DNA from: Thermoplasmata archaeon
Lineage (GTDB): Archaea > Thermoplasmatota > E2 > JACPAO01 > JAHFTW01
Direction of reading: 5' to 3'
Assembly (NCBI GenBank): GCA_034667725.1
Contig: JAXDQS010000003.1
Location: 512,001 to 576,000, forward strand
Length of the DNA: 64,000 nt
Part shown: piece by piece, positions 1,992 to 61,009 of the stretch
How the letters are laid out: each line of letters begins with the position of its first letter
How positions within the stretch are numbered: position 1 is the first letter of the stretch
The notes under the pieces: model-generated
Databases searched by the model: none
What the model was told of the DNA's origin: nothing
What the model saw: the letters and a program-made list of their open reading frames with translations, nothing else
Position numbers and translations under genes: made by a program

Positions 1992-3560
1992 ATGACCTGG
2001 GATGCCGTGGCCGACGTCCTCGCCGGCCGCAAGACGGGGCAGACGGTGCGCCTGCGCGGCTGGGTGCACCGCTCCCGCTCCGCCGGCAAGATGGCCTTCA
2101 TCGTGCTGCGGGACGGCTCCGGCGGCGTCGTGCAGTGCACCGTCAAGGGCGGTGCGGTGGAAGACAAGGACCTGGAGGCGGCGAAGTCCGCCGGCATCGA
2201 GTCCAGCGTGCAGCTGCTGGAAGGGACCGTGGTGGCCGACGAGCGCGCCCCCGGCGGCTTCGAGGTCAAGGCGACCCGGTTCGAGCTGCACCGCAAGGCC
2301 GAGGCGTTCCCGCTGCGCGGCGAGCAGGGCACCGAGTTCGAGCTGGACAACCGCCACCTCTGGCTCCGGAGCACCGAGCTTTCTGCGATCCTGCGGGTCA
2401 AGGGCCGGCTCTACAAGGCCATCCGCGACTTCTACGCGGCGGAGGGGTTCGTGGAAGTGGATCCAAGTGTGATCACCACCAACGCCTGCGAGGGCGGCTC
2501 CACCCTGTTCACCTTCGACTACTTCGGCCAGACGGCCTACCTGTCCCAGTCGGCGCAGATGTACCTGGAGGGCTGCATCTTCGGCATCCCCAAGGTGTTC
2601 AGCATCACGCCCAGTTTCCGCGCCGAGAAAAGCCGGACCAACAAGCACCTCACCGAGTTCCATCATCTGGAAGCGGAGTACGCCTGGTGGGACGCCGAGG
2701 ACAACCGCGTGTTCCAGGAGCGCATGGTGACGCATTTGGCGCACACGGTGGCGAAGGAGTGCGAGGCCGACCTTCGGTTGCTGGGGCAGGACCCCGCCAA
2801 GCTGCTGCGGATCGGGACGTATGAGCCGGGCAAGTCCCTGGCCGACGAGCCGGGCAAGCGGTTCCCGCGCGTGGACTACGCGGCGGCGGTCGAGGAGCTG
2901 CAACGGCAAGGGTTCCACCTTCCTTATGGCGAGGATTTCGGCGTCCCGCACGAGAAGGCCCTGACGGAAGGGAGGGTGAACCCGATGTTCATCTGCGATT
3001 GGCCCGCGCGGATCAAGGCGTTCTACATGGCCGAGAAGCAGGGCACCGACCGCGTGCTGTGCAGCGACATGCTCGGCCCCGATGGGTATGGCGAGATCAT
3101 TGGCGGGAGCCAGAGGAGCGAGGACATCGAGAGCATGAAGCGCCGCCTGTCCGCGCAACTCCTGGCCGAAGCCGCCGAGAAGGCCGAGGAGCAGCACAAG
3201 AAGCTCGACTTCGGCATCCTCGACGGCACCCGCACGGTCGGCACGCCCGCGGAAGCGGAGGCGTTCTTCCAGGCCGTGTGCGAGCTCACCGGCACCAAGT
3301 TCACCGACGTCACGGTGGAGGCCATGGCCGGGTCCCGCGACCGCTCCACCCCGCGCGCGGCCCAGGACGCCTGGACCGACGCCTACTGGAAGGCCAGCCT
3401 GGCCCCCTACCAGTGGTACTTCGACCTCCGCCGCTACGGCTCCGTCCCCCACTCCGGCTTCGGCCTCGGCATCGAGCGCCTCCTTCGCTGGTTCACCGGC
3501 CAGGAGCACATCCGCGACATGCTGCCGTATCCGCGGACGCCGTCGAGGGCGTACCCATGA
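1992..3560 (+). CDS. asnS: Asparagine--tRNA ligase with large C-terminal insertion
   Basis: OB fold (LRGWVH, FIVLRDG), YLSQSAQMY, FRAEKSRT..HLTEF, GEIIGGSQR, YGSVPHSGFGLGIER. Confidence 0.95.
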   Translation: MTWDAVADVLAGRKTGQTVRLRGWVHRSRSAGKMAFIVLRDGSGGVVQCTVKGGAVEDKDLEAAKSAGIESSVQLLEGTVVADERAPGGFEVKATRFELHRKAEAFPLRGEQGTEFELDNRHLWLRSTELSAILRVKGRLYKAIRDFYAAEGFVEVDPSVITTNACEGGSTLFTFDYFGQTAYLSQSAQMYLEGCIFGIPKVFSITPSFRAEKSRTNKHLTEFHHLEAEYAWWDAEDNRVFQERMVTHLAHTVAKECEADLRLLGQDPAKLLRIGTYEPGKSLADEPGKRFPRVDYAAAVEELQRQGFHLPYGEDFGVPHEKALTEGRVNPMFICDWPARIKAFYMAEKQGTDRVLCSDMLGPDGYGEIIGGSQRSEDIESMKRRLSAQLLAEAAEKAEEQHKKLDFGILDGTRTVGTPAEAEAFFQAVCELTGTKFTDVTVEAMAGSRDRSTPRAAQDAWTDAYWKASLAPYQWYFDLRRYGSVPHSGFGLGIERLLRWFTGQEHIRDMLPYPRTPSRAYP

Positions 3561-3691
3561 GCGTGGCTTTGGTCGGGGGGCCGAGCGAAGCGAGCGCCCC
3601 CCTTGACGCGGGGGAGTCCCTCGGGGGCGGAGCCCCCAGGCGGGGCATGCTGCCCTACCCGCGCACGCCGTCGAGGGCCTACCCTTGAGCG
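3518..3691 (+). repeat. Direct repeat of the asnS 3' end (3518-3563 and 3646-3691) flanking a hairpin insert
   Basis: Both copies encode MLPYPRTPSRAYP*. There are 5 differences, all at third codon positions. Confidence 0.93.
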
Positions 3692-3700
3692 CTCCGGACA

Positions 3701-3761
3701 ACCACGGACCGCACGGATTCCACGGACCTAGGGTCTCCGTGCGATCCGTGAAATCCGTGGT
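3701..3761. repeat. 9-bp-periodic CACGGA x3 / TCCGTG x3 palindromic element, copy 1
   Basis: accacggaccgcacggattccacgga-cctagggtc-tccgtgcgatccgtgaaatccgtggt. Confidence 0.92.
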
Positions 3762-3781
3762 CCCAGGCGGAGGCGCGTAGC

Positions 3782-4168
3782 GTGCCGAAGCGCCGCGAGA
3801 TGCAGAAGGCCCGCGCCGGCATGTCGGTCAGCGAGGAGACCGTCGCCCTCTACGGCGCCGCCCGCGCCTTCCTCATCGGCGAATGGATCGGGGCCCTGCT
3901 GATGCTCTCCTCGTTCACGCTGCTCTACCTGCTCTACGCCGCCACCGCCTGGTCGCCGAAAAGCATCCTCATCGCCACCTTGGGCCTCATGGGCGTCGGC
4001 ACCGTCGCCTACCTGCGCAGCCGGGCCTACTACCAGCGTATCGCGTTCCCCTACGCCCCCCGCGCCCACCTCGGCGCCCTGCTGGTGGCCGGCTCGGCCG
4101 TCGTGTTCTGGCTGCTGTTCGCGCTGCTGGAAATCCTGGTGGGGCTCGGCGTCGAGGTCGGCGGTTAG
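3782..4168 (+). CDS. Small membrane protein, unknown function
   Basis: 128 aa, about 3 TM segments, host-like codon usage. Confidence 0.75.
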   Translation: MPKRREMQKARAGMSVSEETVALYGAARAFLIGEWIGALLMLSSFTLLYLLYAATAWSPKSILIATLGLMGVGTVAYLRSRAYYQRIAFPYAPRAHLGALLVAGSAVVFWLLFALLEILVGLGVEVGG

Positions 4169-4187
4169 GGTTTTGCCCTAACCCTGA

Positions 4188-5108
4188 GTGCCCGCCCCCG
4201 TGCCCGCCACGGCCTCCCCTCAAGTCGTGACCTCGACCGACCTCCCCTTCAAGGTGTTCCGCAAGGGCAAGGTGCGCGACGTCTACGACCTCGGCGACCG
4301 CCTCCTCATGGTCGCGACCGACCGCATCAGCGCCTTCGACGTGGTGCTGGAGCCCGGCATCCCCCTCAAGGGCGCCTGCCTGACGCAGATCAGCAACTTC
4401 TGGTTCCACCAACTGCGCGACGAGGTCCCGAACCACCTCGTGGAGACCGACGTCGCCCGCTTCCCCAAGGAACTGCAGCCCTACGCCGCGATGCTCAAGG
4501 GCCGCGCCGTCCTGGTCGAGAAGCTCAAGCCGCTGCCGGTCGAGTGCATCGCCCGCGGCCACATCTCGGGCTCCGGCTGGAAGGAGTACAAGAAGTCCGG
4601 GACCGTGTGCGGCATCAAGCTCCCCCCCGGCCTCCAGGAGTCGCAACGCCTCCCCGAGACCATCTTCACGCCCAGCACCAAGGCGGACGAGGGCCACGAC
4701 GAGAACATCAGCTTCGCGGAGTGCGAGAAGATCGTCGGCAAGCAGACGGCCGCCTGGCTGCGCGACACCACCATCCGCATCTACGAGACGGCCCGCGCCC
4801 ACGCCGCCGAGCGCGGCATCATCATCGCCGACACCAAGTTCGAGTTCGGCACCCGCGCCGACGGCACCATCGTGCTCATGGACGAGATCCTCACCCCCGA
4901 CTCCAGCCGCTTCTGGCCGATGGAGTCGTTCAAGCCTGGCGGCAGCCCGCCCAGCTTCGACAAGCAGTTCCTGCGCGACTGGCTCGAGACCCAGCCCTGG
5001 GACAAGACGCCCCCCGGCCCCCGCCTGCCCCCGCAGGTCGTGGAGGGCACCGCCCAGCGCTACTACGAGGCGTACGAGAAGCTCACGGGCAAGCCGTTCC
5101 GGGTCTAG
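4188..5108 (+). CDS. purC: SAICAR synthetase
   Basis: GKVRDVY, ATDRISAFD, ADTKFEFG, DEILTPDSSRFW, SFDKQFLRDWL. Confidence 0.97.
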   Translation: MPAPVPATASPQVVTSTDLPFKVFRKGKVRDVYDLGDRLLMVATDRISAFDVVLEPGIPLKGACLTQISNFWFHQLRDEVPNHLVETDVARFPKELQPYAAMLKGRAVLVEKLKPLPVECIARGHISGSGWKEYKKSGTVCGIKLPPGLQESQRLPETIFTPSTKADEGHDENISFAECEKIVGKQTAAWLRDTTIRIYETARAHAAERGIIIADTKFEFGTRADGTIVLMDEILTPDSSRFWPMESFKPGGSPPSFDKQFLRDWLETQPWDKTPPGPRLPPQVVEGTAQRYYEAYEKLTGKPFRV

Positions 5109-5161
5109 GGTTCAAGCCGCTCTTCAACGTGCTTATAACGGCCCCAAGAATCGAAACCACG

Positions 5162-5509
5162 ATGCGCATCCCGGTCGCCGACCGCCTCCTCGCGGTCGTG
5201 GGCTACCTTCCGTTCCTGTTCTGGGTTCCGGTGGTCCTGAAGCGCGACTCGATGTTCTGCCAGTTCCACGGCCGGCAGGGCGGCGTCCTGTGGGCGCTCT
5301 GGTTCGTCCCGGTCTTCCTCATGCTGGTGGTGTCGGTCTTCGTGCCCGACCTCACCGTCGGCTCGGTGGGCCCGTTCTACTTCGGCGCCATGATGGTACT
5401 CACGGGCATCTACCTCCTGCTGGTGCTGGTCGGCGTCCTCAAGGCGCTGCTGCGCGAGCGGTACAGGATGCCGATCGTGGCGGACCTTGCGTTGAAGATG
5501 GGCTTGTAG
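5162..5509 (+). CDS. DUF4870-like small membrane protein
   Basis: GYLPFLFWVP...FHGRQG, 3 TM segments, C-terminal YRMPIVADLA. Confidence 0.78.
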   Translation: MRIPVADRLLAVVGYLPFLFWVPVVLKRDSMFCQFHGRQGGVLWALWFVPVFLMLVVSVFVPDLTVGSVGPFYFGAMMVLTGIYLLLVLVGVLKALLRERYRMPIVADLALKMGL

Positions 5510-5741
5510 CCGCGTGATGGAGGGCCGCAGCGCAGCGGAGGCCCCCTCCCTAGCAACATGCCGGCTGGGTTCGCAGCCGACAGGATGCCCATCGTGGCGG
5601 ACCTTGCGTTGAAGATGGGCTTGTAGCCGCGTGATGGAGGGCCGCAGCGCAGCGGAGGCCCTCCCTGGCAACATGCCGGCTGGGTTCGCAGCCGACAGGA
5701 TGCCGATCGTGGCCGACCTCGCCCTGAAGATGGGCCTGGAG
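5463..5741 (+). repeat. Tandem array of the DUF4870-like gene 3' end plus hairpin insert (117-bp and 115-bp units and a third tail copy)
   Basis: Units start at 5463, 5580 and 5695. Each tail encodes RMPIVADLALKMGL. The 27-bp motif is at 5553-5579 and 5668-5694. Confidence 0.95.
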
Positions 5742-5797
5742 CCCGTCTGGCGGCTTTGGCAAACCTTATGGAAGCGCCCTAGGCATCGTCGTCGTCC

Positions 5798-6871
5798 ATG
5801 AAGGCCGTCCCCGTGCTGCTCCTGCTGCTGGCCACGACCTTCAGCGGCTGCCTCGGCGGCGAGGCGCGCACCGAGTGGGCCTTCGAGGTCACCCAGCTTG
5901 CCACCTTGGCCGACCAGGGCCGCAGCGGCAAGGGCGTGGTGGTGGCCATCCTCGACACCGGCATCAACCGCGAGCACGCCGCGCTGGAGCACCTGTTCGA
6001 CGGCGACCTGGAGAACGGCGAGGTCACCCACTTCCAGGACTTCCTGGGCACCGACCAAGGCCCCGCCAAAGCGTTCGACCGGGACGGCCACGGTTCGCAC
6101 GTGGCGGGCGTCCTGGCCGCCTCCGGCAGCACCCTCGGCGACAAGCTGGTCTACGGCGGCGTCGACCTGCGCGGCGGCGCCCCCGGCATCCGGCTCATGG
6201 TCGCGCGGGTGTGCGGCGAGGCCGCCTGCGACGGCAACGCCATCGTGCGCGCCGTCGACTGGGCCGCCGCCAACGGCGCCCAGGTCCTGTCGTTGAGCCT
6301 GGGCCGCCAGGCCAGCAGCTCGGTCCTGCCCGTCCAGCTCCAGGACGCGATGGAGTCCGCCATCAACCGCGCCATCGACCGCGGCATCGTGGTGGTCGCC
6401 TCCGCCGGCAACGACGGCCCGGGCAACACCGACGTCGGCAGCCCCGCCAGCATCCCGCGCGTCATCGCGGTCGGTGCCATCCAGGAGGACGGCAGCGTGT
6501 GGGCGTCCTCCAGCCGGGGCGACGACGCCACCAACCCGTGCCGCACCATCCCCGTCGTGGGATCGCAGGGCCGCTGCAAGCCCAACCAGAAGCCCGAGCT
6601 GGTCGCCCCCGGCGTCGACATCCTGTCGTCCTGGACCGACGACTCCTACGCCCGCGCCTCCGGCACCAGCCAGGCCACGCCGTTCGTGACCGCCGCCGTC
6701 GCCCTCATGCTGGAAGGCCACGGCCGCCTCACCGACGCCGACGACGTGGCCCGCGTCAAGAAGGTCCTCGTCGACACCGCCCAGCCGGTCGCCGACCAGG
6801 CCATGCCGCACGACGAAGGGGCCGGCTACGGCCTCGTGCAGGCGCTCGCGGCGGTCAACGCCTACCGTTAG
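5798..6871 (+). CDS. Subtilisin-like S8 serine protease, lipoprotein
   Basis: Lipobox-like FSGC. Catalytic triad motifs ILDTGI, HGSHVAG, GTSQATP, plus SAGN. Confidence 0.93.
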   Translation: MKAVPVLLLLLATTFSGCLGGEARTEWAFEVTQLATLADQGRSGKGVVVAILDTGINREHAALEHLFDGDLENGEVTHFQDFLGTDQGPAKAFDRDGHGSHVAGVLAASGSTLGDKLVYGGVDLRGGAPGIRLMVARVCGEAACDGNAIVRAVDWAAANGAQVLSLSLGRQASSSVLPVQLQDAMESAINRAIDRGIVVVASAGNDGPGNTDVGSPASIPRVIAVGAIQEDGSVWASSSRGDDATNPCRTIPVVGSQGRCKPNQKPELVAPGVDILSSWTDDSYARASGTSQATPFVTAAVALMLEGHGRLTDADDVARVKKVLVDTAQPVADQAMPHDEGAGYGLVQALAAVNAYR

Positions 6872-7821
6872 CCGCCGTGCGGGCCTTGGGTCTCCAGCCA
6901 CCGCTCCGCGTCGATGGCCGCCTTGCAGCCCGAGCCGGCCGCCGTGATGGCCTGCTTGTAGCGGTGGTCGTAGACGTCGCCGGCCACGAACACGCCCTCC
7001 ACCGAAGTGTAGGTGTCGTACTGGCCCTCCTGCACGATGTAGCCGCCCTCATCGAGGCGCAGCTGGCCCCGGAACAGCCCCGTGTTGGGCACGTGGCCGA
7101 TGGCGCTGAAGTAGCCCTGCGTCGCCATCTCCTCGGCCTTGCCCGTCGCCAGGCTGCGGATGCGGACGCCCGTGACCGACTCGGTGCCCAAGAGCTCCTC
7201 GATGACGGTGTTCCACAGGATGCGAATCTTGGGGTGCTCCATGGCGCGGGCGGCCATGATCTTGGAGGCGCGGAACGAGTCGCGGCGGTGGATGATGGTG
7301 ACCTTGGTGGCGAACTTGGTCAAGAACAGCGCCTCCTCCATCGCCGAGTCGCCGCCGCCCACCACCACGACCTCCTTCTCCTTGAAGAAGAAGCCATCGC
7401 AGGTGGCGCACGCGGACACGCCCTTGCCGCGCAGCCGGGTCTCGGACGGGAGGCCCAGCCACTTCGCGGTGCTGCCGGTGGCCACGATGACGGCGCGCGC
7501 CTCGTGCGTCCCCGAGCTGCTCGTGACCTTGAAGGGGCGGTGCATGAAGTCGACGGCGGTGGCGTCCTCGTCGCGGAACTCCGCCCCGAAGCGGATCGCC
7601 TGCTTGCGCATCTGCTCCATCAGGTTGGGCCCGGTGACGGCGTGCTCGAAGCCCGGGAAGTTCTCCACGTCGGAGGTGATCATGAGCTGCCCGCCCGCCT
7701 CGAAGCCGGCCACCACCAGGGTCTTGAGGTTGGCGCGGGCCGCGTAGATGGCGGCGGTGCAGCCGGCGGGTCCGGAGCCGATGATGAGGATGTCCCAGGG
7801 CTTCTGCACGGTCGGCGCCAC
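6868..7821 (-). CDS. trxB: Thioredoxin reductase
   Basis: IIGSGPAG, CATCDG, VVGGGDSAMEEA, GVFVAGD. Start is GTG 7821 or 7809. Confidence 0.96.
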   Translation of the reverse strand: MAPTVQKPWDILIIGSGPAGCTAAIYAARANLKTLVVAGFEAGGQLMITSDVENFPGFEHAVTGPNLMEQMRKQAIRFGAEFRDEDATAVDFMHRPFKVTSSSGTHEARAVIVATGSTAKWLGLPSETRLRGKGVSACATCDGFFFKEKEVVVVGGGDSAMEEALFLTKFATKVTIIHRRDSFRASKIMAARAMEHPKIRILWNTVIEELLGTESVTGVRIRSLATGKAEEMATQGYFSAIGHVPNTGLFRGQLRLDEGGYIVQEGQYDTYTSVEGVFVAGDVYDHRYKQAITAAGSGCKAAIDAERWLETQGPHGG

Positions 7822-7869
7822 CGGAGGCGGCTTGATGGGCGTTGGGGTTGGTTTGGGCCTGGGGGCCAA

Positions 7870-7929
7870 ACCACGGATCGCACGGATTTCACGGAAACCT
7901 TCGTCCGTGGAATCCGTGCGATCCGTGGT
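7870..7929. repeat. 9-bp-periodic CACGGA/TCCGTG palindromic element, copy 2
   Basis: accacggatcgcacggatttcacgga-aaccttcg-tccgtggaatccgtgcgatccgtggt, between divergent trxB and metG. Confidence 0.92.
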
Positions 7930-7991
7930 CGGACCCGCTGGGCGCAGCCCACGCGGTGTCCTCAAGAACACGCCCCCGCCTCCCCGTCCGC

Positions 7992-10079
7992 TTGAAGCCG
8001 CCCATCTACATCGGGGTCGCCTGGCCGTACGCCAACGGCCCCCTGCACCTCGGCCACGTCGCCGGCTCGCTGCTGCCGCCGGACATCTTCCGCCGCGCCA
8101 TGCGGATGATGGGCCACGACGTGCTGATGGTCTCCGGCTCCGACTGCCACGGCACGCCCATCATGATCCAGGCCGAGAAGGCAGGGACGACCCCGGCCGA
8201 GGTGGTGGCGCACTTCCACGCCGACCATGTCCGGGCCTTGGAGCGGCTGGGCGTCGGCTTCGACCTGTTCACGACCACGACGACGCCGAACCACCGCGAC
8301 TGGGTGCAGCAGGTGTTCTTGGCGTGCCGCGAGATGGGCTACATCGAGAAGCGCACCTCGGCGGCGCCGTTCGACGCGATGGCCAACCGGTTCCTGCCCG
8401 ACCGCTACGTCGAGGGCACCTGCCCGCACTGCGGCGACAAGGGGGCCCGGGGCGACCAGTGCGACGCCTGCGGCAAGACGCTGGACCCGAAGGACCTGCA
8501 GAACCCGCGCAGCAAGCTCGACCCGACGCACCCCGTCACGTTCCGCGACACCGAGCACTTCTTCTTCCTGCTGTCGAAGCTGCAGCCGGCGCTGGAGAAG
8601 TACGTGGCGCGCACGGGCGGCCATTGGCGCTCCAACACCATCCACTTCACGCAGAACTGGCTGAAGGAGGGCTTGCAGGACCGGGCCATCACGCGCGATT
8701 TGACCTGGGGCATCCCGATCCCCGAGGCGGGCTACGACGACAAGCGCATCTACGTCTGGTTCGAGGCGGTGTGCGGCTACCTGACGGCGAGCATCGAGTG
8801 GGCGGCCCGCAGCGGCAAGCCGGACGCCTGGAAGCGCTACTGGACCGACCCCGCCGCGAAGGCGTACTACTTCCTCGGCAAGGACAACATCCCGTTCCAC
8901 ACCATCATCTGGCCCGCCATCCTGCTCGCGTTCAACGAGGCGCGGGCGAAGAAGGGCGAGAAGCCGCTGAACCTGCCGTTCGACGTGCCCGCCAACGAGT
9001 TCCTCAACCTCTCCGGCCTCAAGTTCTCCAAGTCGCAAGGCGTCGGCATCGGCGTCCACGAGGTGCTCGACCGCTTCCAGCCGGACGCCGTGCGCTACTA
9101 CCTCAGCATCAACATGCCCGAGGGCAAGGACGCCGACTGGACCTGGGAGGACTTCGGCAGCAAGGTCAACGACGAACTCGTCGGCACCCTGGGCAACCTG
9201 TTCCACCGCGTGCTGTCGTTCACCCACAAGAACGTCGGCCGCATCCCCAACGACCCCGAGCCGCACGACAAGCTGGACGCCAAGGTGCGCGAGGCCATCG
9301 CGGCCACCGGCGAGGAGCTGGCCCTCCACCTCTCGACCGTCAACCTCCGCAAGGGGATGCGACGCGTGATGGAGCTCGCCATCCAGGGCAACCAGTGGAT
9401 GCAGGAGGCGCAGCCGTGGGCCCGCTTCAAGACCCACCGCGAGGAGGCCGAGGACAACCTGCACTCGCTGCTTCGCCTGTGCAAGGCGCTCGCCGTCTAC
9501 ATGGCGCCCTACCTGCCGCACGCCGCCGAGGAGGCCTGGCGGATGCTCGGCGAGCAGGGCAGCGTCCACGCCCAGCCGTGGTCCGCCGCCCAGGCGCCGC
9601 TCCAGGCCGGCCAGGCGCTCCAGGAGCCCAAGGCGCTGTTCGTCAAGCTGGAGCCCGAACTGGTCGCGCAACTGGCCGGGCCTGCGCCCGCCGCCGCGCC
9701 CACGGCCGCCAAGGCCCCGCCGAAGCCCACCGCCATCGCGACCCCGCCGCACGGCACCGTGACCATCGACGACTTCGCCCGGCTGCACATCCGGCTCGCC
9801 AAGGTGGTCGCCGTCGAGGACCACCCGAAGGCGGACAAGCTCTACGTGCTCCGCCTCGACGCGGGGGAGCTGGGCCCGCGCCAAGTGGTCGCCGGCCTCA
9901 AGGCGCACTACAAGCCCGAGGAGCTCGTGGGCAAGACCGTCGCGTTCCTGGCCAACCTCCAGCCCGCCATGCTGCGCGGCGTCGAGTCGCAAGGCATGGT
10001 GCTGGCCGCCGACGACGGCACCCTCGTGGGCGTGCTGCGGCCCGACCGCGAGCTTCCCGCCGGCTCGAAGGTGCGGTAG
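7992..10079 (+). CDS. metG: Methionine--tRNA ligase with C-terminal tRNA-binding domain
   Basis: AWPYANGPLHLGH, Zn knuckle CPHC..CDAC, YVWFEA, KFSKS, C-terminal Trbp111-like domain. TTG start assumed. Confidence 0.96.
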   Translation: MKPPIYIGVAWPYANGPLHLGHVAGSLLPPDIFRRAMRMMGHDVLMVSGSDCHGTPIMIQAEKAGTTPAEVVAHFHADHVRALERLGVGFDLFTTTTTPNHRDWVQQVFLACREMGYIEKRTSAAPFDAMANRFLPDRYVEGTCPHCGDKGARGDQCDACGKTLDPKDLQNPRSKLDPTHPVTFRDTEHFFFLLSKLQPALEKYVARTGGHWRSNTIHFTQNWLKEGLQDRAITRDLTWGIPIPEAGYDDKRIYVWFEAVCGYLTASIEWAARSGKPDAWKRYWTDPAAKAYYFLGKDNIPFHTIIWPAILLAFNEARAKKGEKPLNLPFDVPANEFLNLSGLKFSKSQGVGIGVHEVLDRFQPDAVRYYLSINMPEGKDADWTWEDFGSKVNDELVGTLGNLFHRVLSFTHKNVGRIPNDPEPHDKLDAKVREAIAATGEELALHLSTVNLRKGMRRVMELAIQGNQWMQEAQPWARFKTHREEAEDNLHSLLRLCKALAVYMAPYLPHAAEEAWRMLGEQGSVHAQPWSAAQAPLQAGQALQEPKALFVKLEPELVAQLAGPAPAAAPTAAKAPPKPTAIATPPHGTVTIDDFARLHIRLAKVVAVEDHPKADKLYVLRLDAGELGPRQVVAGLKAHYKPEELVGKTVAFLANLQPAMLRGVESQGMVLAADDGTLVGVLRPDRELPAGSKVR

Positions 10080-10129
10080 CCGCCGAACCCGCTCGCAGCC
10101 TCTTTGAGCACGCAGGCGCATCGACGGGC

Positions 10130-10600: not shown

Positions 10601-10611
10601 TCCAACTAGGG

Positions 10612-13683: not shown

Positions 13684-13687
13684 GGGC

Positions 13688-26834: not shown

Positions 26835-26837
26835 GAT

Positions 26838-37950: not shown

Positions 37951-38427
37951 TCAACGCCCGGCTGCAAACCCAGCCGGCATGTTGCATCGGTGGGCTTCGT
38001 TGCGCTCGACCCACACAGATTCCACAGACCTGACTTTGGTTCTGGCGGGGCCTAGCCAAAAAATTCCACAGACGTCTGTGGGAATCTTCTGAATCTGTGC
38101 GCATCAGTGCTCGTCGCGGGCCCGACTGGACACAGATTCCACAGACCTCTGCGAGAATCTTCCGAGTCTGGGTAAATCAGTGCCCGTCGGGTGACCGACG
38201 CACCTTAGCCTGAGGAATCAACCCGGCTTGATCAACCCGTTCAGCACCGCGAACGCATCGAACAAGTCCCCCTCCGGCTGCAAACCCAGCCGGCATGTTG
38301 GCCTGCCTCGCAGCTCCGCGCTCGGCAGGCCGGACGCCTCGCTTCGCATCGGCGGCGCTGACGCGCACCTTCATCCCGGCTTGATCAACCCGTTCAGCAC
38401 CGCGAACGCATCGAACAAATCTTCCTC
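37941..38427 (-). repeat. Three copies of the ACT-gene 3' end separated by two hairpin inserts, each ending in the 27-bp motif
   Basis: Tail copies at 38371-38427, 38218-38274 and 37941-37955. Motif (reverse complement) at 38275-38300 and 37959-37985. CACAGA/TCTGTG repeats at 38012-38190. Confidence 0.92.
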
Positions 38428-39033
38428 GTCGATCAGGAAGATGTTGTCCTTGTAACAGGACACGACCTCGTTGAAGTTGATGCCCTTGGCCGCCAGGCTG
38501 CTGGCAAGGAAAGCAAGAATCCCCGGCACGTCCTCGATGCTGTCGGGGCTGCGGATGTTCAATTCCACCAGGTTGCGGCGGACCTTGATGGTCTCGTCGC
38601 CCATGAGCCCCTCGACTTCCGCCATCATGGCCTCGTCGGTGATGATGGTGATGGACTCGCTGCCGTGCAGGACGTGGATGGGGTGGTTGCGGCCTTGGAC
38701 GGCACTAAGGGCCTTCTCCAGCCGCGCGAACGACTTCCAATTGGGGTGCGCCGTGAGGGTGGCGACCCGGGTGCGGACCTCGAGCTTCGACTTGTCGAGC
38801 ACCTTGCGGATGGCCTTCTGGGTCTCCTTGCCGGTGTGCGGCGCCTTGTAGCGGCGGCAGGCGACCAGCACGGCCTCCTCGCTGCCGAGCCCGGTCTCCT
38901 CCTGGATCTGTCGGGTGAGGGCGCTGAGGTTGACGATGCCTAAGGACAAGGCGTCGCGGACGACGGGGCGGGCGTCGATGTAGGCGCGCACCGAATGGGC
39001 GACGCTGGCCGGCTTCTGGGCCTTCTTGGGCAC
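38371..39033 (-). CDS. ACT-domain protein with N-terminal helical (putative DNA-binding) domain
   Basis: ALSLGIVNLSALTRQI N-terminal domain. C-terminal ACT VPGILAFLASSLAAKGINFNEVVSC. Divergent from argG. Confidence 0.85.
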   Translation of the reverse strand: MPKKAQKPASVAHSVRAYIDARPVVRDALSLGIVNLSALTRQIQEETGLGSEEAVLVACRRYKAPHTGKETQKAIRKVLDKSKLEVRTRVATLTAHPNWKSFARLEKALSAVQGRNHPIHVLHGSESITIITDEAMMAEVEGLMGDETIKVRRNLVELNIRSPDSIEDVPGILAFLASSLAAKGINFNEVVSCYKDNIFLIDEEDLFDAFAVLNGLIKPG

Positions 39034-44688: not shown

Positions 44689-45540
44689 ATGAGCGGGATC
44701 CCAGCATCCAGTCGCGTGGTCCGCGTCGCCCTCTACACCCGCGTCTCCACCGAGGACCAGGCCAAGGAGGGCTTCAGCCTGGACGCCCAGCTCGAGCGGC
44801 TGCGGTTCTTCGCCAAGGCCCAGGGTTGGGAGGTCGCCGGCGAGTACGTCGACGAGGGCCACTCCGGCCGCACCACCAAGCGCCCCCAGTACGCCCGCAT
44901 GATGGAGGAGCGCCCCCGGTGGGACATCCTGCTGGTGCTGAAGATGGACCGGATCCACCGCAACAGCCGCAACTTCATGGCCATGATGGACCAGCTCCGC
45001 AAGGAGGGCAAGGAGTTCGCCAGCGTCACCGAGTCGCTCGACACCTCCACGGCGATGGGGCGGTTCGTCATGGACATCATCCAACGCATCGCCCAGCTCG
45101 AGTCCGAGCAGATCGGCGAGCGCGTCTACATCGGCATGGAGCAGAAGGCCAAGCAGCGCGGCAACTCCCTGGGCAAGGAGGCTCCCTTCGGCTACCGCTA
45201 CCGGCCCGACCGGGTCCTGGAGCCCGTCCCCGAGGAGCGGGCGTTCGCGGAGGGGATTTTCCGGCGCTATCTGGCCGGTGCGAGCTCTGGCGAGGTGGCA
45301 ACGTGGCTTACCAGCGCAGGGGCCAAGATGCGGCGCGGTGGGGCTTGGACCCGCCAGCGGGTGCTCGACATCCTCGCCAACCCGACCTACGCAGGCGCCG
45401 CGAAGTGGGACGGCGTCCTGCAGCTGGCCACCCACGAGGGCGTCGTGGACCCCAAGACTTTCGACGCGGCGCAGGACCGGCTCGCCGTCACGAACCCCGC
45501 CATGGCGACCGTCCGGCTCACCCGGCTGCAAGTGGCTTGA
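44689..45540 (+). CDS. Serine recombinase (resolvase catalytic domain plus recombinase domain)
   Basis: YTRVSTEDQ catalytic Ser, DEGHSG, KMDRIHRN, AQLESE.IGER, PFGY, ILANPTYAG. Confidence 0.93.
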   Translation: MSGIPASSRVVRVALYTRVSTEDQAKEGFSLDAQLERLRFFAKAQGWEVAGEYVDEGHSGRTTKRPQYARMMEERPRWDILLVLKMDRIHRNSRNFMAMMDQLRKEGKEFASVTESLDTSTAMGRFVMDIIQRIAQLESEQIGERVYIGMEQKAKQRGNSLGKEAPFGYRYRPDRVLEPVPEERAFAEGIFRRYLAGASSGEVATWLTSAGAKMRRGGAWTRQRVLDILANPTYAGAAKWDGVLQLATHEGVVDPKTFDAAQDRLAVTNPAMATVRLTRLQVA

Positions 45541-51022: not shown

Positions 51023-51152
51023 GGAACGCGCCACCACAAGCCTCCGGACCCCGTTCTTTTGCATTGAGTTAAGGTTTGTGTGCCGTTCCCTTCGTGCCGC
51101 CGGCCCGCCCCTGCAAAGACTTATCGCTCCCCCGAAGTCCTCGGGCCTTGGC

Positions 51153-54002
51153 ATGAAGCCCGCCCTCCTGACCGTCGCGATCGCCCTGCTGCTGGTGCCG
51201 ATCTCCGCGGCGAACCTTTCGGACCCCACTGCGTGCAGTTTCGGCGACCCCCTCCCCCTTGGCCCTGTGTACTACGCCCAGGGAGGCGCCAACCTGAACG
51301 CCACCGGGGTCAACTCGTGCGCCTTGGCCGGCAGCAACAACCTGGCCGCCGGCGTCAGCTCGGTGGTCGTCGCCGGCAACGGCGGCACCGCCGCCGGGCT
51401 TGCGTCGGGCGTCCTTGCGGGCACCGGCAACGAGGCGCAGGCCGAGCAGTCGATGGTCGGCGCCGGCACCGGGAACAAGGTCTTGGCCACCGGCTCCGGC
51501 GGCGCCATCCTGGCGGGCAACCTCAACAAGGTCTCGGGCGTGCTCTCCATCGTCGTGGGCGGCAACCTCAACGACGTCACCGCCAACCTCGGCTTCATCG
51601 GCGGCGGCGCCAACAACAAGGTCACGGGCCTCAACGGCGCCGTCGCCGGCGGCGTCGGCAACAAGGCGTTCGGCGAAAGCTCGTTCGTGGGCGGCGGCAA
51701 CGGCAACCAGGTCAGCGCCACCGGCCTTGGCGGCGTCGTGGCCGGCGGCCTGGCCAACCTCGCCACCGGCAAGGCGGCCACGGTCGTGGGCGGCGGCGGC
51801 AACCAGGCCTTGGCCGACTTCGCCACCGTGGCGGGCGGCAACACCAACACCATCATCGCCACCTCCACGGGCAGCTTCATCGGCGGCGGCGCGGGCAACG
51901 AGATCAACGCGGCCGGCGTCGGCACCGTCATCGTGGGCGGCGGCCTCAACAAGATCGTCGGCAACGGCGCCCAGTCGTTCATCGGCTCCGGCGTCCAGAA
52001 CAGCCAAGGCGGCAGCACCAGCGCCATCGTGGGCGGCTCGCAGAACGCCATCGTGACGACCACCTCGGGCGGCTTCATCGGCGCCGGCGGCCAGAACGCC
52101 ATCGCCGCCAGCGGCGCCAACTCCGCCATCGTGGCCGGCAGCTCCAACGGCATCCTGGGCGGCGTCACCGGCGGATTCATCGGCGCCGGCATGACCAACG
52201 CGGTCTCGGCCAACAACGCCGCCGTGGTCGGCGGCACCAACAACCAGGCCAACGGCGCGGCCTCGGCCGTCGTCGGCGGCGAGCGCAACGTCGCCGTGGG
52301 CGCCGGCTCCTTCCTTGGCGCCGGCAACGACAACGCCGCCAACGGCGCCGCCGCCACCGTCGTGGGCGGCCGCCTCAACAAGCTCATCGGCGACCTCGCC
52401 GTCATCGTGGGCGGCGAGAACAACGCCATCACCGGCCTCGGCTCCGCCATCCTCGGCGGCCAGGACAACACCGTGACGGGCGACAACGGCTTCATCGGCG
52501 GCGGCCGGGGCAACGAGGCCACCGGCGCCGGCGTGTTCATCGGCGGCGGCCGCGCCAACGAGGCCAACGGCGCCGACGCCACCGTGGTCGGCGGCACCGG
52601 CAACCAAGCCCTGGCCGACGGCGCCGCCATCGTCGGCGGCAACACCAACCTGGTCCTGGCGGGCGCCAACAACGCCGCCGTCGTGGCCGGCACCCAGAAC
52701 GAGGTCCAGGCGGCCGGCTCCTTCCTGGGCGCCGGCAGCGAGAACACCGCCGCCGGCACCGAGTCCGCCATCGTGGCGGGCAACAGCAACCGCGTCTCGG
52801 GCAACTACGGCGCCATCGTTGCCGGCGACCAGAACGTCGTCAGCGGCGCCGGCTCCGGCATCCTGGCCGGCACCCAGAACGTCGCCAGCGGCAACCAGGC
52901 CAACATCGGCGGCGGCAGCCAGAACACCGCCGTCGGCGACCAGAGCTTCGTCGGCAGCGGCCTGCAGAACAACGCCATCGGCACCGGCTCCGTCGTGGGC
53001 GGCGGCCAGAACAACCAGGCCGTAGGCGGCATCGCCGTCGTCGGCGGCGGCACCGCCAACCGCGCCCAAGGCATCGGCAGCGGCGTCGGCGGCGGCCGCG
53101 GCAACACCGCGCAGTCGCAAGACTCCACGGTCGCCGGCGGCTCCGCCAACCTCGCCCTCAACCAGGGCTCGTTCGTCGGCGGCGGCATCTCCAACCAGGC
53201 CCTCGGCGCCTTCTCGGCCGTCGTGGGCGGCAACAACGCCAACATGGCCATCGGCGCCGCCTCCTTCGTGGGCGGCGGCAGCCGCAACGCCGCCGTGGGC
53301 GACTCCTCCGCCATCGCGGGCGGCACCTCGAACTCCGCGGGCGCCTTCGCGGCGGTCGCGGGCGGCAACATGAACCAGGCCGCCGGCACCCAGAGCTCGG
53401 TGGGCGGCGGCAACATGAACCTCGCCGTCGGCATCGGCTCGCACGTCGGCGGCGGCGACCAGAACCGCGCCCTCGGCGACTACGCCAACATCGGCGGCGG
53501 CGTCGGCAACCGCGCCACCGGGTTCGCCAGCATGGTCCCGGGCGGCCAGGCGGCCCTCGCGGACAACTACGGCCAGATGGCGGTCGCCTCCGGCTCGTTC
53601 AGCCCGCTCCCCGGCACGGCGCAGGCCAGCAAGTTCGTGGTCCGCGGCTCCTCCAGCACGGCCGGCAGCGTCGAGCTCATGGCCGACGGCGGCGCCAGCG
53701 TCCTTGGCGAGAAGATGAAGGTCCGCCTGGGCGCGACCTGGGCCTTCAAGGGCCTGGTCGTCGCCAGCGCCGGCGGCGGCGCCCTGTCGCACGGCTGGGA
53801 GGTCCGCGGCGTCGTGAAGAACACGCCCACCGGCATCACCCTGGTGAGCTCCTCGGTCAGCGACATGGGCAGCGACGCCGCCGCGACCGCGTGGACCGTC
53901 AGCGTCTCGACCGACCCCGTCCAAGGGGCGCTGGTTCTGAAGGGCAACGCGACCACGGGCGTCCACTTCGTGGGCACCGTCGAGACCGCCGAAGTGGCAT
54001 AG
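51153..54002 (+). CDS. Secreted Gly/Asn-rich repeat protein (beta-solenoid adhesin or tail-fibre-like)
   Basis: Signal peptide. Dozens of about 14-16-aa repeats like SxVxGGxxNxAxG. Beta-rich C-terminal domain. Confidence 0.88.
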   Translation: MKPALLTVAIALLLVPISAANLSDPTACSFGDPLPLGPVYYAQGGANLNATGVNSCALAGSNNLAAGVSSVVVAGNGGTAAGLASGVLAGTGNEAQAEQSMVGAGTGNKVLATGSGGAILAGNLNKVSGVLSIVVGGNLNDVTANLGFIGGGANNKVTGLNGAVAGGVGNKAFGESSFVGGGNGNQVSATGLGGVVAGGLANLATGKAATVVGGGGNQALADFATVAGGNTNTIIATSTGSFIGGGAGNEINAAGVGTVIVGGGLNKIVGNGAQSFIGSGVQNSQGGSTSAIVGGSQNAIVTTTSGGFIGAGGQNAIAASGANSAIVAGSSNGILGGVTGGFIGAGMTNAVSANNAAVVGGTNNQANGAASAVVGGERNVAVGAGSFLGAGNDNAANGAAATVVGGRLNKLIGDLAVIVGGENNAITGLGSAILGGQDNTVTGDNGFIGGGRGNEATGAGVFIGGGRANEANGADATVVGGTGNQALADGAAIVGGNTNLVLAGANNAAVVAGTQNEVQAAGSFLGAGSENTAAGTESAIVAGNSNRVSGNYGAIVAGDQNVVSGAGSGILAGTQNVASGNQANIGGGSQNTAVGDQSFVGSGLQNNAIGTGSVVGGGQNNQAVGGIAVVGGGTANRAQGIGSGVGGGRGNTAQSQDSTVAGGSANLALNQGSFVGGGISNQALGAFSAVVGGNNANMAIGAASFVGGGSRNAAVGDSSAIAGGTSNSAGAFAAVAGGNMNQAAGTQSSVGGGNMNLAVGIGSHVGGGDQNRALGDYANIGGGVGNRATGFASMVPGGQAALADNYGQMAVASGSFSPLPGTAQASKFVVRGSSSTAGSVELMADGGASVLGEKMKVRLGATWAFKGLVVASAGGGALSHGWEVRGVVKNTPTGITLVSSSVSDMGSDAAATAWTVSVSTDPVQGALVLKGNATTGVHFVGTVETAEVA

Positions 54003-54088
54003 GCCACGCTAGGCCCTTTTCCTCTCCTTCTCCTTGCTTGCCCCGCTCCCAAGGCGGGGCGGCGGCTTTCGGCGGCTTGCGTGCAGCG

Positions 54089-54337
54089 CTAGGCCAGCGT
54101 CTCGAGCTGCGACATGATGTTCCAGACCAGCGTCCGCCCGTGCAGGGGGATGTTGGGGTCGTTGGCCATGTCGTCGAGCGTGTTGATGGCCTTCGCCTTG
54201 CGGACGTCGAGCGGCTTGTCGTTCTCGGACAGGAGGAGCTTGATCTGCTCGGCGCTGCGGCGGATGTTGCGCGGCACCGAGGTGTCCTCCATGAGCATCT
54301 CGAGGCCGGTGTTGATGTTCTGGATCCGGGATGCCAT
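54089..54337 (-). CDS. UPF0147 family protein
   Basis: EDTSVPRNIRR, LDD..NDPNIP.HGRT.VWNI.SQLE. Confidence 0.93.
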   Translation of the reverse strand: MASRIQNINTGLEMLMEDTSVPRNIRRSAEQIKLLLSENDKPLDVRKAKAINTLDDMANDPNIPLHGRTLVWNIMSQLETLA

Positions 54338-54397
54338 GAGAAAGCGACTCCAAGGCCCCCCGACCGGGGCGCCGGGCGCGGCGACGGAAGACCCGTC

Positions 54398-56683: not shown

Positions 56684-56922
56684 ACGGCGGCGACCCGGCG
56701 GCGCGTGATGAAAGGTTCGGGGCGGCGGGTGAACGGACTTCGCCGCCCGACCGGGTCGCAACCCAATTTTGACCCCCCCGCTTCGCGTGGAGGCCTTCAT
56801 CCCTCCTGTTGGACAGCGAGTTTCGCGTTTCGGCCATATACTACAGGCAGGTCGCGCCCCGAGTGGGCAAGAAGACGGTTCACTCGCCTCTTCTCCCGCG
56901 TTCATCCCGGAGGGCGCGCTGA

Positions 56923-59034: not shown

Positions 59035-59070
59035 GGGAGCGCCTCCCCAACGCCCTTATGGGAAGGCCTT

Positions 59071-59385
59071 GTGGCGGCCCGAGTGTTCGCGGCGAAGAAC
59101 TACCAGCAGGGCATCCAGCGGCTGCTTGCCGCCTGCGATGAGGAGCTGCTGGGGACCCGCCACGCGGAAGGCAAGTTCCGCCTCGACGTGACACCCAACT
59201 TCTACGACGGCCTGCGCATCGGCGAGCCCGAGCTGGAGGCCTACCTGCGCTCCTGCACCGTCGCCAACCTGGTCGGCCGCCGCGCCGTCGAGGTCGCCGT
59301 CCGGATGGGCCTCGTCGACCCGGCCAACGTGCTGTCCATCGGCGGCGTGCCGCACGCCCAGCTCCTGGTGATGGACCTGCCATGA
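59071..59385 (+). CDS. DUF424 family protein
   Basis: LAACDEELLG, FYDG, ANLVG, IGGVPHAQ. Confidence 0.9.
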   Translation: MAARVFAAKNYQQGIQRLLAACDEELLGTRHAEGKFRLDVTPNFYDGLRIGEPELEAYLRSCTVANLVGRRAVEVAVRMGLVDPANVLSIGGVPHAQLLVMDLP

Positions 59386-60473
59386 GGCTGCAGCTCTGCG
59401 TCGAGTGCGGCCGGGACGTCCCCGAGACCATCGGCGGCGCCTGCCCCGACTGCTTCGTCGCCAAGCAACCGCTTCTGATGGTGCCCGAGGTGCTGGACGT
59501 GGAGACCTGCGCCCACTGCGACGCCCGCCACGTCGGCAACTCCTGGATCGACCCGGACGAGGGCGTGCCCTTGGAGGAGATTCGCGAGGAGGCGCTCCGG
59601 GCCGCCGTGCGCGTGCACGAGCGGGTCCGCGACGCCCACGTCGAGCTGGCCTGCTCGCCGCAGGACGAGCGCCACTTCCGGTTCGACGTGACACTCACCG
59701 GCAACGTCGAAGGCGCCGCGGTCCACGACGCCCGCAAGGTGCTGGTGCGGATGCGCCGCAGCGTGTGCGACCGCTGCAGCCGCATGTTCGGCGGCTACTA
59801 CGCGGCCGTGCTGCAGTTCCGCGCCACCCAGCGCGACGTCACCCGGCACGAGCTGGAGCGGGCCCACAAGGTGGTCGGCGACGAGCTGGACCGGATGCGC
59901 GCCTCCGGCCACCGCGACGCGTTCCTGACGAAGTCCGGCCCCGTCCCCGGCGGCTTCGACTACTACTTGGGCGACATCGAGGCGGCCCGCATCATCTCCC
60001 GCCAAGTGGCCTCCCGCCTGGGCGCCACCGTCGTCGAGACCGCCAAGCTGGCCGGCCGCAAGGAGGGGGAGGACATCTACCGCGTCACCTTCCTGGTGCG
60101 CATCCAACTCTACGCCCCCGGCGACTTCGCGCGCATCGGCGACGACCGCATCGTGCAGGTCCACAGCGTCGACCGCGGCCGCGCCGTCGTGTGGGACCTG
60201 GCGACCCACAAGCGCGACAAGGTGTCCGAGGAGAGCCTCCGACGCCTGGGCGGCCAAGAAATCCTCCTGGAGGCCGTCCTGGTGAGCCAAGACCCGGCCC
60301 ATCTGCAAGTCCTCGACCCCGTCAGCCTCCAGACCGTGGACCTGGTCCGCCCCGAAGGCTTCGAGGTCCACGGCGCCACCATCTTGGTGCTGCGCCACGA
60401 GGAACGCCTCTACCTCCCGCCCAGCAGCGGAAACGGGCCAAGCGACCCAAAAACCCCTGCCTCCACGGCATAG
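59382..60473 (+). CDS. NMD3-family ribosome biogenesis protein
   Basis: Four CxxC pairs, GGYYAAVLQFR, GGFDYY, YRVTFLVR. Confidence 0.9.
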   Translation: MRLQLCVECGRDVPETIGGACPDCFVAKQPLLMVPEVLDVETCAHCDARHVGNSWIDPDEGVPLEEIREEALRAAVRVHERVRDAHVELACSPQDERHFRFDVTLTGNVEGAAVHDARKVLVRMRRSVCDRCSRMFGGYYAAVLQFRATQRDVTRHELERAHKVVGDELDRMRASGHRDAFLTKSGPVPGGFDYYLGDIEAARIISRQVASRLGATVVETAKLAGRKEGEDIYRVTFLVRIQLYAPGDFARIGDDRIVQVHSVDRGRAVVWDLATHKRDKVSEESLRRLGGQEILLEAVLVSQDPAHLQVLDPVSLQTVDLVRPEGFEVHGATILVLRHEERLYLPPSSGNGPSDPKTPASTA

Positions 60474-60524
60474 GTCCATATACCACCCCCACCAAACGAT
60501 GTGCTGTTCAGGAGCGATTTTCGC

Positions 60525-60914
60525 GTGACCCAACGGATTCTCACCCTCGAAGACTTGGCGATGGCCGTCAGCAACCGCATTGGCATCGAGGAGGAGGACG
60601 CGATGCGCGACGCGAACTTCGTCATGGACATCTTCGGCTTCGACGACCGCGTCATCGACAACGTCCTGGAGCCCGAGGACCGCCAGCTGTTCTACATCCT
60701 CGAGGAGGAGGGCATGCTCACGACCGAGCGCGAGGAGACGACCCTCTACGACGGCCGCGAATGGCGCACCCACTACTGGCTGTTCAAGCGCAACCAGGTC
60801 TTCCTCATGTCGGAGGAGGAGCGCGAGGTCCGCCGCCGCAAGAAGGCGCAGCCCACGGAAGCCACGATCTACGCCCAGATTCCTGAGGAAGCCTGGGCAA
60901 GCCGGCAAATCTAG
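60525..60914 (+). CDS. DUF6015-like conserved archaeal protein
   Basis: FGFDDRVIDNVLEPEDRQLFYILEEEG..TTEREE.TLYDGREWR.HYW. Confidence 0.78.
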   Translation: MTQRILTLEDLAMAVSNRIGIEEEDAMRDANFVMDIFGFDDRVIDNVLEPEDRQLFYILEEEGMLTTEREETTLYDGREWRTHYWLFKRNQVFLMSEEEREVRRRKKAQPTEATIYAQIPEEAWASRQI

Positions 60915-61009
60915 GCGACGCCTTTGGCACCGCCCGATTTGAGCGGAGCGCGCAGGCCCCCGAGCGCAGCGATGGGGCCCGCGATGCGAAGCGAGCGGCG
61001 CCTATCTAG
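60909..61009 (+). repeat. Hairpin insert with three GC-GNA-GC loops, flanked by ATCTAG (last codon plus stop) repeats
   Basis: ATCTAG at 60909-60914 and 61004-61009. CGATGCGAAGCGAG is shared with the insert at 38338-38351 (reverse complement). Confidence 0.65.

Follow-up and report, generated by a model that had tools for sequence, protein, structure and literature searches.

Integrative elements that target the 3′ ends of tRNAs or genes carry an attP that reconstitutes the target, and REP/REPIN repeats are associated with RAYT. Gene-end replacement is described for the WHO elements of Torulaspora and Lachancea, in which a replacement 3′ end of FBA1 arrives with the element and the old 3′ end is displaced downstream; repeated rounds produce arrays in which the copy next to the gene is the most recent, and the elements encode their own LAGLIDADG endonuclease, have mainly one gene as their home and need a resistant allele (PMC7282813). 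In fungal mitochondria, mORFs supply a foreign C-terminus to atp6 of Allomyces and to atp6, atp9, cox2 and nad3 of Glomus (PMC3630166). PATEs, defined as members of the IS200/IS605 family (PMC3119063), make no target duplication.

In an uncultured Thermoplasmatota archaeon, about 25 unrelated genes and several tRNAs carry a unit with the layout tail with stop, polar cassette, older tail. As in WHO elements and mORFs, a replacement 3′ end lies upstream and the displaced native end downstream. The cassettes differ from WHO elements in their size (37–268 bp), in having no endonuclease gene, in occupying about 25 genes plus tRNAs and in that some copies are identical: many incoming tails are recoded, whereas identical copies occur at tRNAs and at three genes. 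With mORFs (PMC3630166) they share an in-frame incoming tail, a displaced native tail that is nearer to relatives and a protein that is conserved as the DNA diverges, but each mORF contains an endonuclease ORF, and mORFs are organellar and have few targets. Like integrative elements directed to gene ends, a cassette brings the 3′ part of its target and the gene stays intact; unlike them, it has no integrase, cargo or common crossover sequence, and its unrelated targets number in the dozens. Insertions with long target duplications (PMC2853133) and homology-facilitated illegitimate recombination (HFIR; PMC3240628) resemble the cassettes in the long, variable direct repeats around the insert and in homology-assisted entry, but they involve restriction-modification or arbitrary cargo and have neither a fixed hairpin end nor a gene-end bias. 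The term 'undescribed', used in the preliminary description of this DNA, therefore does not apply to end replacement by an incoming allele, which is known (PMC7282813, PMC3630166); a description of the gene-less, many-target, mini-hairpin form was not found in our (incomplete) literature search.

The features of the window, by which we mean the whole stretch of 64,000 nucleotides analysed, are given below; the words incoming, resident, displaced and oldest follow the reading suggested by the flanks in relatives.

3518–3560, plus strand: in-frame (incoming) asnS tail, 43 nt including the stop
3561–3645, plus strand: asnS cassette, class B, with left motif (3583–3593) and GNA mini-hairpin (3624–3636)
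3646–3688, plus strand: displaced resident asnS tail, with five differences from 3518–3560, all synonymous
3699–3769, no strand assigned: abundant palindromic repeat, motif C, separate from the tail-swapping cassette
5463–5509, plus strand: in-frame tail of the MamF/DUF4870 gene
5510–5579, plus strand: DUF4870 cassette, class E, copy 1, with the fixed 26-nt 3′ end at 5554–5579
5580–5626, plus strand: DUF4870 tail copy 2, one synonymous change, within a tandem tail-plus-cassette repeat
5627–5694, plus strand: DUF4870 cassette, class E, copy 2, 3′ end at 5669–5694
5695–5741, plus strand: oldest (resident) DUF4870 tail, copy 3, five synonymous changes, stop lost (TAG to GAG)
37938–37955, minus strand: 18-nt remnant of the oldest ACT tail, which has lost its stop and overlaps the stop codon of argD, a convergent aminotransferase gene
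37959–37984, minus strand: second class-E 3′ end of the ACT locus
37985–38217, minus strand: motif-C repeat block between ACT tail copies 2 and 3
38218–38274, minus strand: displaced ACT tail, 57 nt, two synonymous changes and one amino-acid change at the 5′ edge
38275–38370, minus strand: ACT cassette, class E
38371–38427, minus strand: in-frame tail of the ACT-domain gene (38371–39033)
60909–61009, plus strand: probable short case at a DUF6015 gene, a 6-nt repeat including the stop and an 89-nt insert with left motif (60962–60972)

The DUF4870 gene (5162–5509) encodes a MamF/DUF4870 membrane protein (PF09685), and the outermost tail copies of both window arrays, DUF4870 and ACT, lack a stop. 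A motif-C array is also found behind a GxxExxY gene. Two further cases had been proposed as weaker examples; one of them, 60909–61009, is plausible as a short cassette case because its insert has the cassette left motif, whereas 54007–54095 has a 7-nt repeat only, lacks the cassette motif, does not rise above the null and looks like chance.

A stop-anchored scan of the whole genome detected downstream tail copies scoring at least 26 bits at 28 genes, compared with one in shuffled pairing, so that the tail-insert-tail layout shared by asnS, DUF4870 and the ACT gene is real (genes were called with our own codon model, and start sites are approximate). Twenty-five of the 28 frame a gene-less insert of 37–268 bp between target duplications of 23–94 nt; the three high-scoring matches left out are a motif-C array, a tandem repeat that has no insert and a pair of ribosomal stalk paralogues. 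Long-range cargo cases were kept out of these counts because noise in a whole-genome BLAST of tails prevented their listing. Cassette-bearing genes include those for DNA polymerase D subunits, an A/V-type ATP synthase subunit and FttA, as well as cdc6, ftsZ, rpS15 and asnS. No intergenic copies of gene starts were found in the genome. Duplications made by these cassettes also affect a promoter and both the 3′ and the 5′ ends of tRNAs, the tRNA copies being identical or nearly so over 34–86 nt. Insertion after stop codons, as originally proposed, does not describe these products: the right junction lies inside the gene by 23–94 nt, and tRNA ends and a promoter are hit as well.

Near (in-frame) and far copies differ at 54 synonymous and 8 non-synonymous positions genome-wide (pN/pS about 0.05), a synonymous share of 87% against an expected 39%, or 62% under generous assumptions (p from 8e-15 to 1e-5). 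This shows that near and far tails diverged while both were coding. Far copies retain a stop in 24 of 25 cases, in eight of them a different stop codon, and three coding cases have no difference at all. Within far copies, amino-acid changes are concentrated towards the 5′ edge (9 of 75 codons versus 3 of 214), a contrast inflated by alignment edges. At asnS and DUF4870 the distal copy has the host-typical codons, as first noticed, but this direction does not hold genome-wide, where the commoner codon lies in the far copy 30 times and in the near copy 23 times (p = 0.41). Gene ends are codon-atypical in general in this genome (mean −0.91, versus −0.55 inside genes).

Duplication followed by decay, already judged a poor fit in the preliminary description, is rejected by the 54 synonymous versus 8 non-synonymous differences. 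Long target duplications of variable length are known (PMC2853133) and a few pairs are identical, so duplication may describe the first capture step; as a complete explanation it is very improbable, given a synonymous share above even the generous expectation and stops that are conserved as stops. Selection on a translated far copy, reached by read-through, frameshift or a coupled mini-ORF, could also hold back non-synonymous change, and a 43-codon ORF (3557–3688), annotated in a JGI record, does run into the far asnS copy. We nevertheless give this explanation hardly any credence, since frame offsets of far copies are even (10/8/7), 14 of 25 cases lack a start codon upstream that is in frame with the far copy, and the tRNA cases cannot be accounted for. 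The genome is a metagenome assembly, and a chimera of co-occurring strains is a further alternative; it is the least probable explanation, close to negligible, because conserved polar inserts separate the copies and the tail-cassette-tail layout occurs in eight related genomes from other assemblies. A second assembly, whose contig has another length, is identical over window positions 1–8509, although it may stem from the same sample.

Comparison with relatives suggests that the far copy is the old, displaced resident end. Empty alleles were seen in other species, and none in a conspecific, for asnS (in genome G002) and DUF4870 (in G004); the context downstream of the far asnS copy is similar to the G002 allele without the asnS cassette, and a flank motif after DUF4870 copy 3 (5756–5769) is present also in the empty G004 allele. 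At the ACT locus, the first codons of the displaced tail (E-G-D-L) are those of the closest relative, G002, whereas the in-frame copy reads E-E-D-L. This evidence supports the idea, put forward earlier, that an incoming tail displaces the resident one. Several species share the same cassettes, which are also found at loci unrelated to each other; a near-identical copy of the ACT cassette, for example, lies behind an unrelated gene at G000:C10:409364-409460. From these cross-species comparisons of sequence we infer cassette movement and donor identity. In relatives, a duplicate starts a few nucleotides downstream at 22 of 81 hairpin sites, and in reverse orientation at one. Hairpin-free tail duplications around cargo also occur in this lineage: asnS tails are duplicated around cargo in G012 (111 nt) and, with a cargo of two genes, in G023 (about 80 nt), and the tail of a succinate-dehydrogenase-type gene is duplicated around one cargo gene at G000:C7:16345-17760. 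Hairpins are therefore not required for end replacement as such. Metagenome scans found nothing, and exact-protein look-ups returned one identical contig only.

The cassette usually closes with a GNA-loop DNA mini-hairpin shortly before the far copy, on the sense strand in 18 of 25 inserts and on the opposite strand in one. Four further stem pairs covary and the middle base of the loop is free (G42, A31, C30, T4), which is the pattern expected of d(GCGNAGC) mini-hairpins; in DNA form these are exceptionally stable, and they are found at single-stranded DNA replication origins (PMC13037366). The description of the inserts as hairpin-rich holds for these specific short motifs but not for whole inserts, whose folding energy is not better than that of shuffles (z −1.0 to +1.4). 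The cassette has a fixed 3′ end, and its junction with the target lies within a tRNA or, by 23–94 nt, within the gene. The class-E end directly adjoins four different targets that have no sequence in common; in class B, hairpin and copy are separated by a variable 2 to 14 nt. Some genes obtain their stop from the cassette. In one cassette class, a stretch antisense to the target of that cassette is present (p = 0.0004 overall by permutation; by duplex energy, p < 0.05 in 5 of 25 cases). The antisense stretch was not detectable at asnS (p = 0.15) or ACT (p = 0.57) and was marginal at DUF4870 (p = 0.07); a general antisense guide was rejected, being limited to that class. As noted from the outset, the units are tiny, sit at many genes and specify no enzyme: the inserts encode nothing, and none of 22 related cassettes has a gene. 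For known RNA scaffolds, Rfam at gathering thresholds gave no match in the 64-kb window.

Like REP/REPIN and PATEs, the cassettes are short, gene-less and palindrome-ended and would be moved in trans, probably as single-stranded DNA; unlike PATEs, they have 23–94 nt duplications, and a Y1 transposase (PF01797) occurs in 0 of the 38 genomes of the order (65–94% complete; control 6 of 14). The other partners first suggested fared no better in genome searches. Reverse transcriptase (PF00078) is absent from G000, the genome searched (90% complete), as is a four-helix bundle gene from the genome, and GxxExxY was rejected, since 28 loci lack the B motif or a flanking tail repeat, with two lone A-like matches; this gene family is limited to one genus, whereas the hairpin spans the taxonomic family. 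TnpB-type Zn-ribbons (PF07282) gave no match over the cut-off in 32 family genomes, a DUF559 search was negative, no cassette link was noticed for HNH matches, and the GIY-YIG match corresponds to the N-terminal part of a UvrC-like gene of 622 aa. An integrase was discounted: the single match sits on a separate element at tRNA-Pro, and the targets share no sequence. The stand-alone serine recombinase at 44716–45540 is a family-wide, mostly single-copy gene whose flanks lack the cassette motif. The sole HUH-like candidate, a Rep_1/IS91-like gene (G000:C10:29865-30944), has no cassette motif within 1.5 kb and was found with this query in 9 of 38 genomes, several cassette-bearing ones not among them. 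These enzyme-family searches thus linked no enzyme gene to the cassettes, and a rolling-circle Rep is an unproven candidate helper. The pair of left motif and hairpin is also found in CRESS-type ssDNA virus contigs, in the non-coding region just after the Viral_Rep gene.

We propose, with about an even chance of being right, that the cassettes are mobile but non-autonomous, that they act in the form of single-stranded DNA and that gene-end replacement is how they spread. At the first landing, a trans-acting strand-transfer enzyme, most likely of the rolling-circle/HUH type or another kind that recognizes folded single-stranded DNA, would join the hairpin-defined 3′ end to a nicked target strand, and copying or recombination would seal the other side. 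Survival would be limited to products in which the gene is complete, which would explain the apparent stop-codon bias. The filled allele may then pass between strains or species as tail-plus-cassette DNA, by homologous recombination upstream and a join or crossover where the tail of the recipient gene begins. That tail, functional until then, would become the new far copy, hence copies that differ at synonymous sites, and repeated rounds would push older tails outward, where in the end they decay. A bolder and less probable form is that the cassettes are single-stranded DNA elements free of protein genes and that a shared host or viral enzyme joins their hairpin end to almost any locus, some members base-pairing to the target through their built-in antisense copy.

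Alternatively, a nuclease supplied in trans and guided by the cassette, through the displaced tail or the antisense copy, could cut the empty allele, with repair on the template of the filled allele installing a recoded, resistant tail. The architecture and array polarity fit the WHO model (PMC7282813), and the antisense copy in one cassette class could provide a guide; such homing is nonetheless rather unlikely, since the near-identity of tRNA copies and the three identical coding pairs suggest that recoded resistance is not required, the TnpB-type search was empty and the antisense stretch is marginal or not detectable at the window loci. We consider it similarly doubtful that no dedicated enzyme takes part, and that ends are replaced by HFIR, in which foreign DNA enters through homology at one flank and is joined illegitimately at the opposite one, or by single crossover of a small looped-out circle. 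The hairpin-free cargo duplications speak for such a route, as do partial-gene duplications in E. coli that arise from single crossovers of circles (PMC3240628). HFIR, however, usually entails loss of host DNA, and its joins are scattered over micro-homologies (PMC3240628), whereas the cassettes are joined at a fixed end with nearly absolute polarity, and the arrival of one cassette at unrelated genes is left unexplained. That hairpins merely stabilize single-stranded DNA or favour joining, as this route would have it, is likewise unlikely. Compared with these alternatives, gene-end replacement by mobile single-stranded cassettes is the reading we prefer.

Insertions are normally not tolerated in essential genes, yet in this genome such genes, and tRNAs, have a passenger from which they receive a new end. 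If the proposed mechanism is true, small gene-less elements can colonize a compact archaeal genome via its most conserved genes, and gene ends become mosaic, with effects on phylogeny and annotation. It would also reveal a strand-joining activity that is potentially useful for targeted insertion, and the many independent junctions make the search for the enzyme directly testable. Should the reading of antisense-addressed single-stranded DNA prove true, the cassettes would represent a natural, reprogrammable gene-end editing system in archaea.

The genome under study (G000) is a metagenome-derived assembly of 2.32 Mb (~71% GC, 90% complete), in which a self-trained codon model called ~2,090 genes; the window corresponds to G000:C3:512001-576000. 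At three loci in the window an in-frame gene tail (near copy) is followed by a gene-less cassette and a second tail (far copy), the layout that had been proposed for them:
3518-3688, asnS: 43-nt tail, with a second copy 128 nt downstream that differs at 5 positions, all synonymous
5463-5741, MamF/DUF4870 gene: tail present three times, the outermost copy with 5 synonymous changes and no stop
38427 down to 37938, minus strand, ACT gene: 57-nt tail copy, then an 18-nt remnant
As for two weaker cases, the region at 60909-61009 does contain the cassette's left motif, but its repeat is just 6 nt, and at 54007-54095 the repeat is at chance level and the cassette motif is lacking. A 949-aa secreted protein with ~45-nt tandem repeats, weakly matching the beta-roll ice-binding family PF21300, is encoded at 51153-54002.

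A stop-anchored scan of G000 with a cut-off of ≥26 bits returned 28 genes, compared with 1 when pairings were shuffled. Three unrelated hits were taken out, leaving 25 cases with duplications of 23–94 nt and inserts of 37–268 nt; targets include the genes for PolD DP2 and DP1, Cdc6, FtsZ, an A/V-type ATP synthase subunit, rpS15, FttA, a DRG GTPase, glutamate dehydrogenase and acyl-CoA dehydrogenase. In the mirror test, gene-start duplicates in G000 were paralogues only, and no intergenic start copy was seen. Near and far copies differ at 54 synonymous and 8 non-synonymous sites (pS 0.27, pN 0.013). Duplication followed by neutral decay would give a synonymous share of 39% (p = 8e-15 against the observed share) and, under generous assumptions, of at most ~62% (p = 1e-5); pure duplication and decay is unlikely on these figures. 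The far-copy stop is retained in 24 of 25 cases, 8 of them with a different stop codon. The synonymous excess and the retained stops therefore indicate that divergence took place while each of the two copies served as a coding end. Translation of the far copy is an unlikely explanation, as its frames are spread 10/8/7. The codon-direction argument of the preliminary description, in which the far copy carries the host-typical codons, fails as a general rule (30 versus 23, p = 0.41). Genome-wide, codon adaptation in the last 12 codons is much below that of gene bodies (mean log frequency -0.91 versus -0.55), which may be normal for gene ends or in part a relic of earlier tail swaps.

Empty alleles, that is, the same genes lacking cassette and second tail, were found in relatives. 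For asnS, a small membrane gene lies directly downstream in four of them (G009, G006, G013 and G014), and for the MamF and ACT gene tails no repeat was present in any relative inspected, within the stretch read. The 14-nt flank behind the outermost MamF copy is shared with the G004 empty allele. The ACT far copy starts E-G-D-L, as in the closest relative (G002), whereas the in-frame copy reads E-E-D-L. At sites differing between copies, relatives side with the far copy over the near one by roughly 2:1 or more (37:17, 95:48 and 16:5), for which shared codon bias is a partial cause. In addition, the outermost copies of the two window arrays lack stops. Because of the empty alleles, the flank, the ACT start, the site matches and the lost outer stops, the far copy appears to be the displaced resident end, and arrays would grow next to the gene.

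At least three cassette classes are distinguished by their 3' ends:
class B: a hairpin with a GCGNAGC core
class E: a fixed 26-nt sequence
third class: a hairpin with a GCA loop
Of the 25 inserts, 18 have a GNA-loop hairpin on the sense strand and 1 has it on the opposite strand; 0–14 nt separate the terminal hairpin from the far copy. A set of 107 hairpins (G000 plus relatives) shows alternative base pairs at four more stem positions, well above the level in shuffles; since the sequences are related and not independent, this counts as support and not as a p-value. The base in the middle of the loop varies freely. The same pairing and free base characterize d(GCGNAGC) mini-hairpins, which are very stable as DNA and found at ssDNA origins (PMC13037366). 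Whole-insert folding energy was unremarkable. G000 has 6 copies of the class E end, and the 31 family genomes searched have none; near-identical complete class E cassettes lie behind the ACT gene and an unrelated gene on contig C10. Left motif and hairpin are also paired in CRESS-type viral contigs, where they lie in non-coding DNA that follows the Rep gene. Sequence stretches L259, L261 and L258 place the left motif and GNA hairpin in CRESS-type virus intergenic regions, and in a giant-virus contig inside a direct repeat.

Insertion after stop codons, as initially described, proved too narrow a rule: the sequences duplicated by these same cassettes extend to the 3' ends of tRNAs, to tRNA 5' ends on the opposite strand and to 11 nt of a promoter, and at three loci (C9:801, C3:174081 and C10:109186) the stop or last codons apparently come, by inspection, from the cassette's own first bases. 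On the simplest reading, joining is possible anywhere and the survivors are products that leave a whole gene. A related repeat family between convergent genes shows no duplication. A longer GNA-hairpin repeat family (G000:C10:4803, 127964, 138268, 457979, 296651, 109102 and 22861) abuts a convergent gene's stop codon, again without tail duplication. Antisense matches between cassette and own target are in overall excess (p = 0.0004), an excess confined to one class; by duplex energy 5 of 25 cases have p < 0.05, a level not reached at asnS, MamF/DUF4870 or ACT.

Among 81 class B hairpins from relatives, the sequence behind the hairpin is duplicated upstream of it in 22, versus 1 in reverse orientation; the 22 come from seven genomes, G011 being an eighth, and no genes were found inside these cassettes. 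Mis-assembly is unlikely given such cassettes in other genomes. An RNase_H_2-family gene, acyl-CoA dehydrogenase and tRNA-Tyr are targeted across species with differing junctions. Hairpin-free duplications of the asnS tail around cargo occur in G012 (L031:266-753) and, in another family, in G023 (L032). Among relatives the 3' end of asnS is a hotspot; in G008 and G017 it is followed immediately by toxin-antitoxin-like pairs. At G000:C7:16345-18703, one cargo gene is framed by duplicated tails of both members of a convergent gene pair and the cassette hairpin is lacking, a layout like that of a donor chromosome fragment with one joined end. One unannotated non-coding sequence, possibly an RNA gene end, is cassette-duplicated in two species (L157, L192) and has no Rfam match at gathering thresholds.

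The suggested partner enzymes did not materialize: none of the order's 38 genomes has a Y1 transposase, G000 has no reverse transcriptase or four-helix-bundle gene, and GxxExxY genes lack tail duplications. TnpB is absent from the family and DUF559 genes from G000. GxxExxY genes, which all 13 genomes of the genus have and which within the order are confined to it, are associated with motif C, a different repeat from the cassettes. This palindrome is very abundant, with 126 intergenic half-sites and an array behind the single GxxExxY gene (window 3699-3769, 7847-7952, 37985-38217 and 62458-62528; G000:C5:135100-135450). Two further candidates were considered, and the evidence ties neither to the cassettes. 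A Rep_1/IS91-like HUH protein in G000, with no Pfam hit, is found in 9 of the order's 38 genomes, G000 counted. An integrated element adjoining tRNA-Pro (L230:1012-5625; G000:C10:27011-31624) encodes a tyrosine integrase and the Rep_1/IS91-like rolling-circle protein. The stand-alone short serine recombinase at 44716-45540, mostly single copy with AT-rich flanks, is family-wide (matches in 27 of 31 genomes, 63–78% identical in most) and looks domesticated.

The route we favour, with about an even chance of being correct, is a programmed reaction in which the cassette's hairpin-defined 3' end would be joined as ssDNA, the joined cassette then being completed and later spread by homologous recombination. 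WHO-like cut-and-repair by a guided nuclease is less likely, and enzyme-free, homology-assisted entry equally so. WHO elements (PMC7282813) and fungal mORFs (PMC3630166) work in a way similar to that of the cassettes, but both are defined by an encoded endonuclease that the cassettes lack. PATEs and REPINs resemble them in size and palindromes but differ in that the cassettes make long duplications and have no Y1 partner. In the literature searched we found no description of this gene-less form of gene-end replacement. Very probably the cassettes are mobile, gene-less elements that put alleles from other lineages in place of gene ends; they are well supported as a real, new variant of gene-end replacement.
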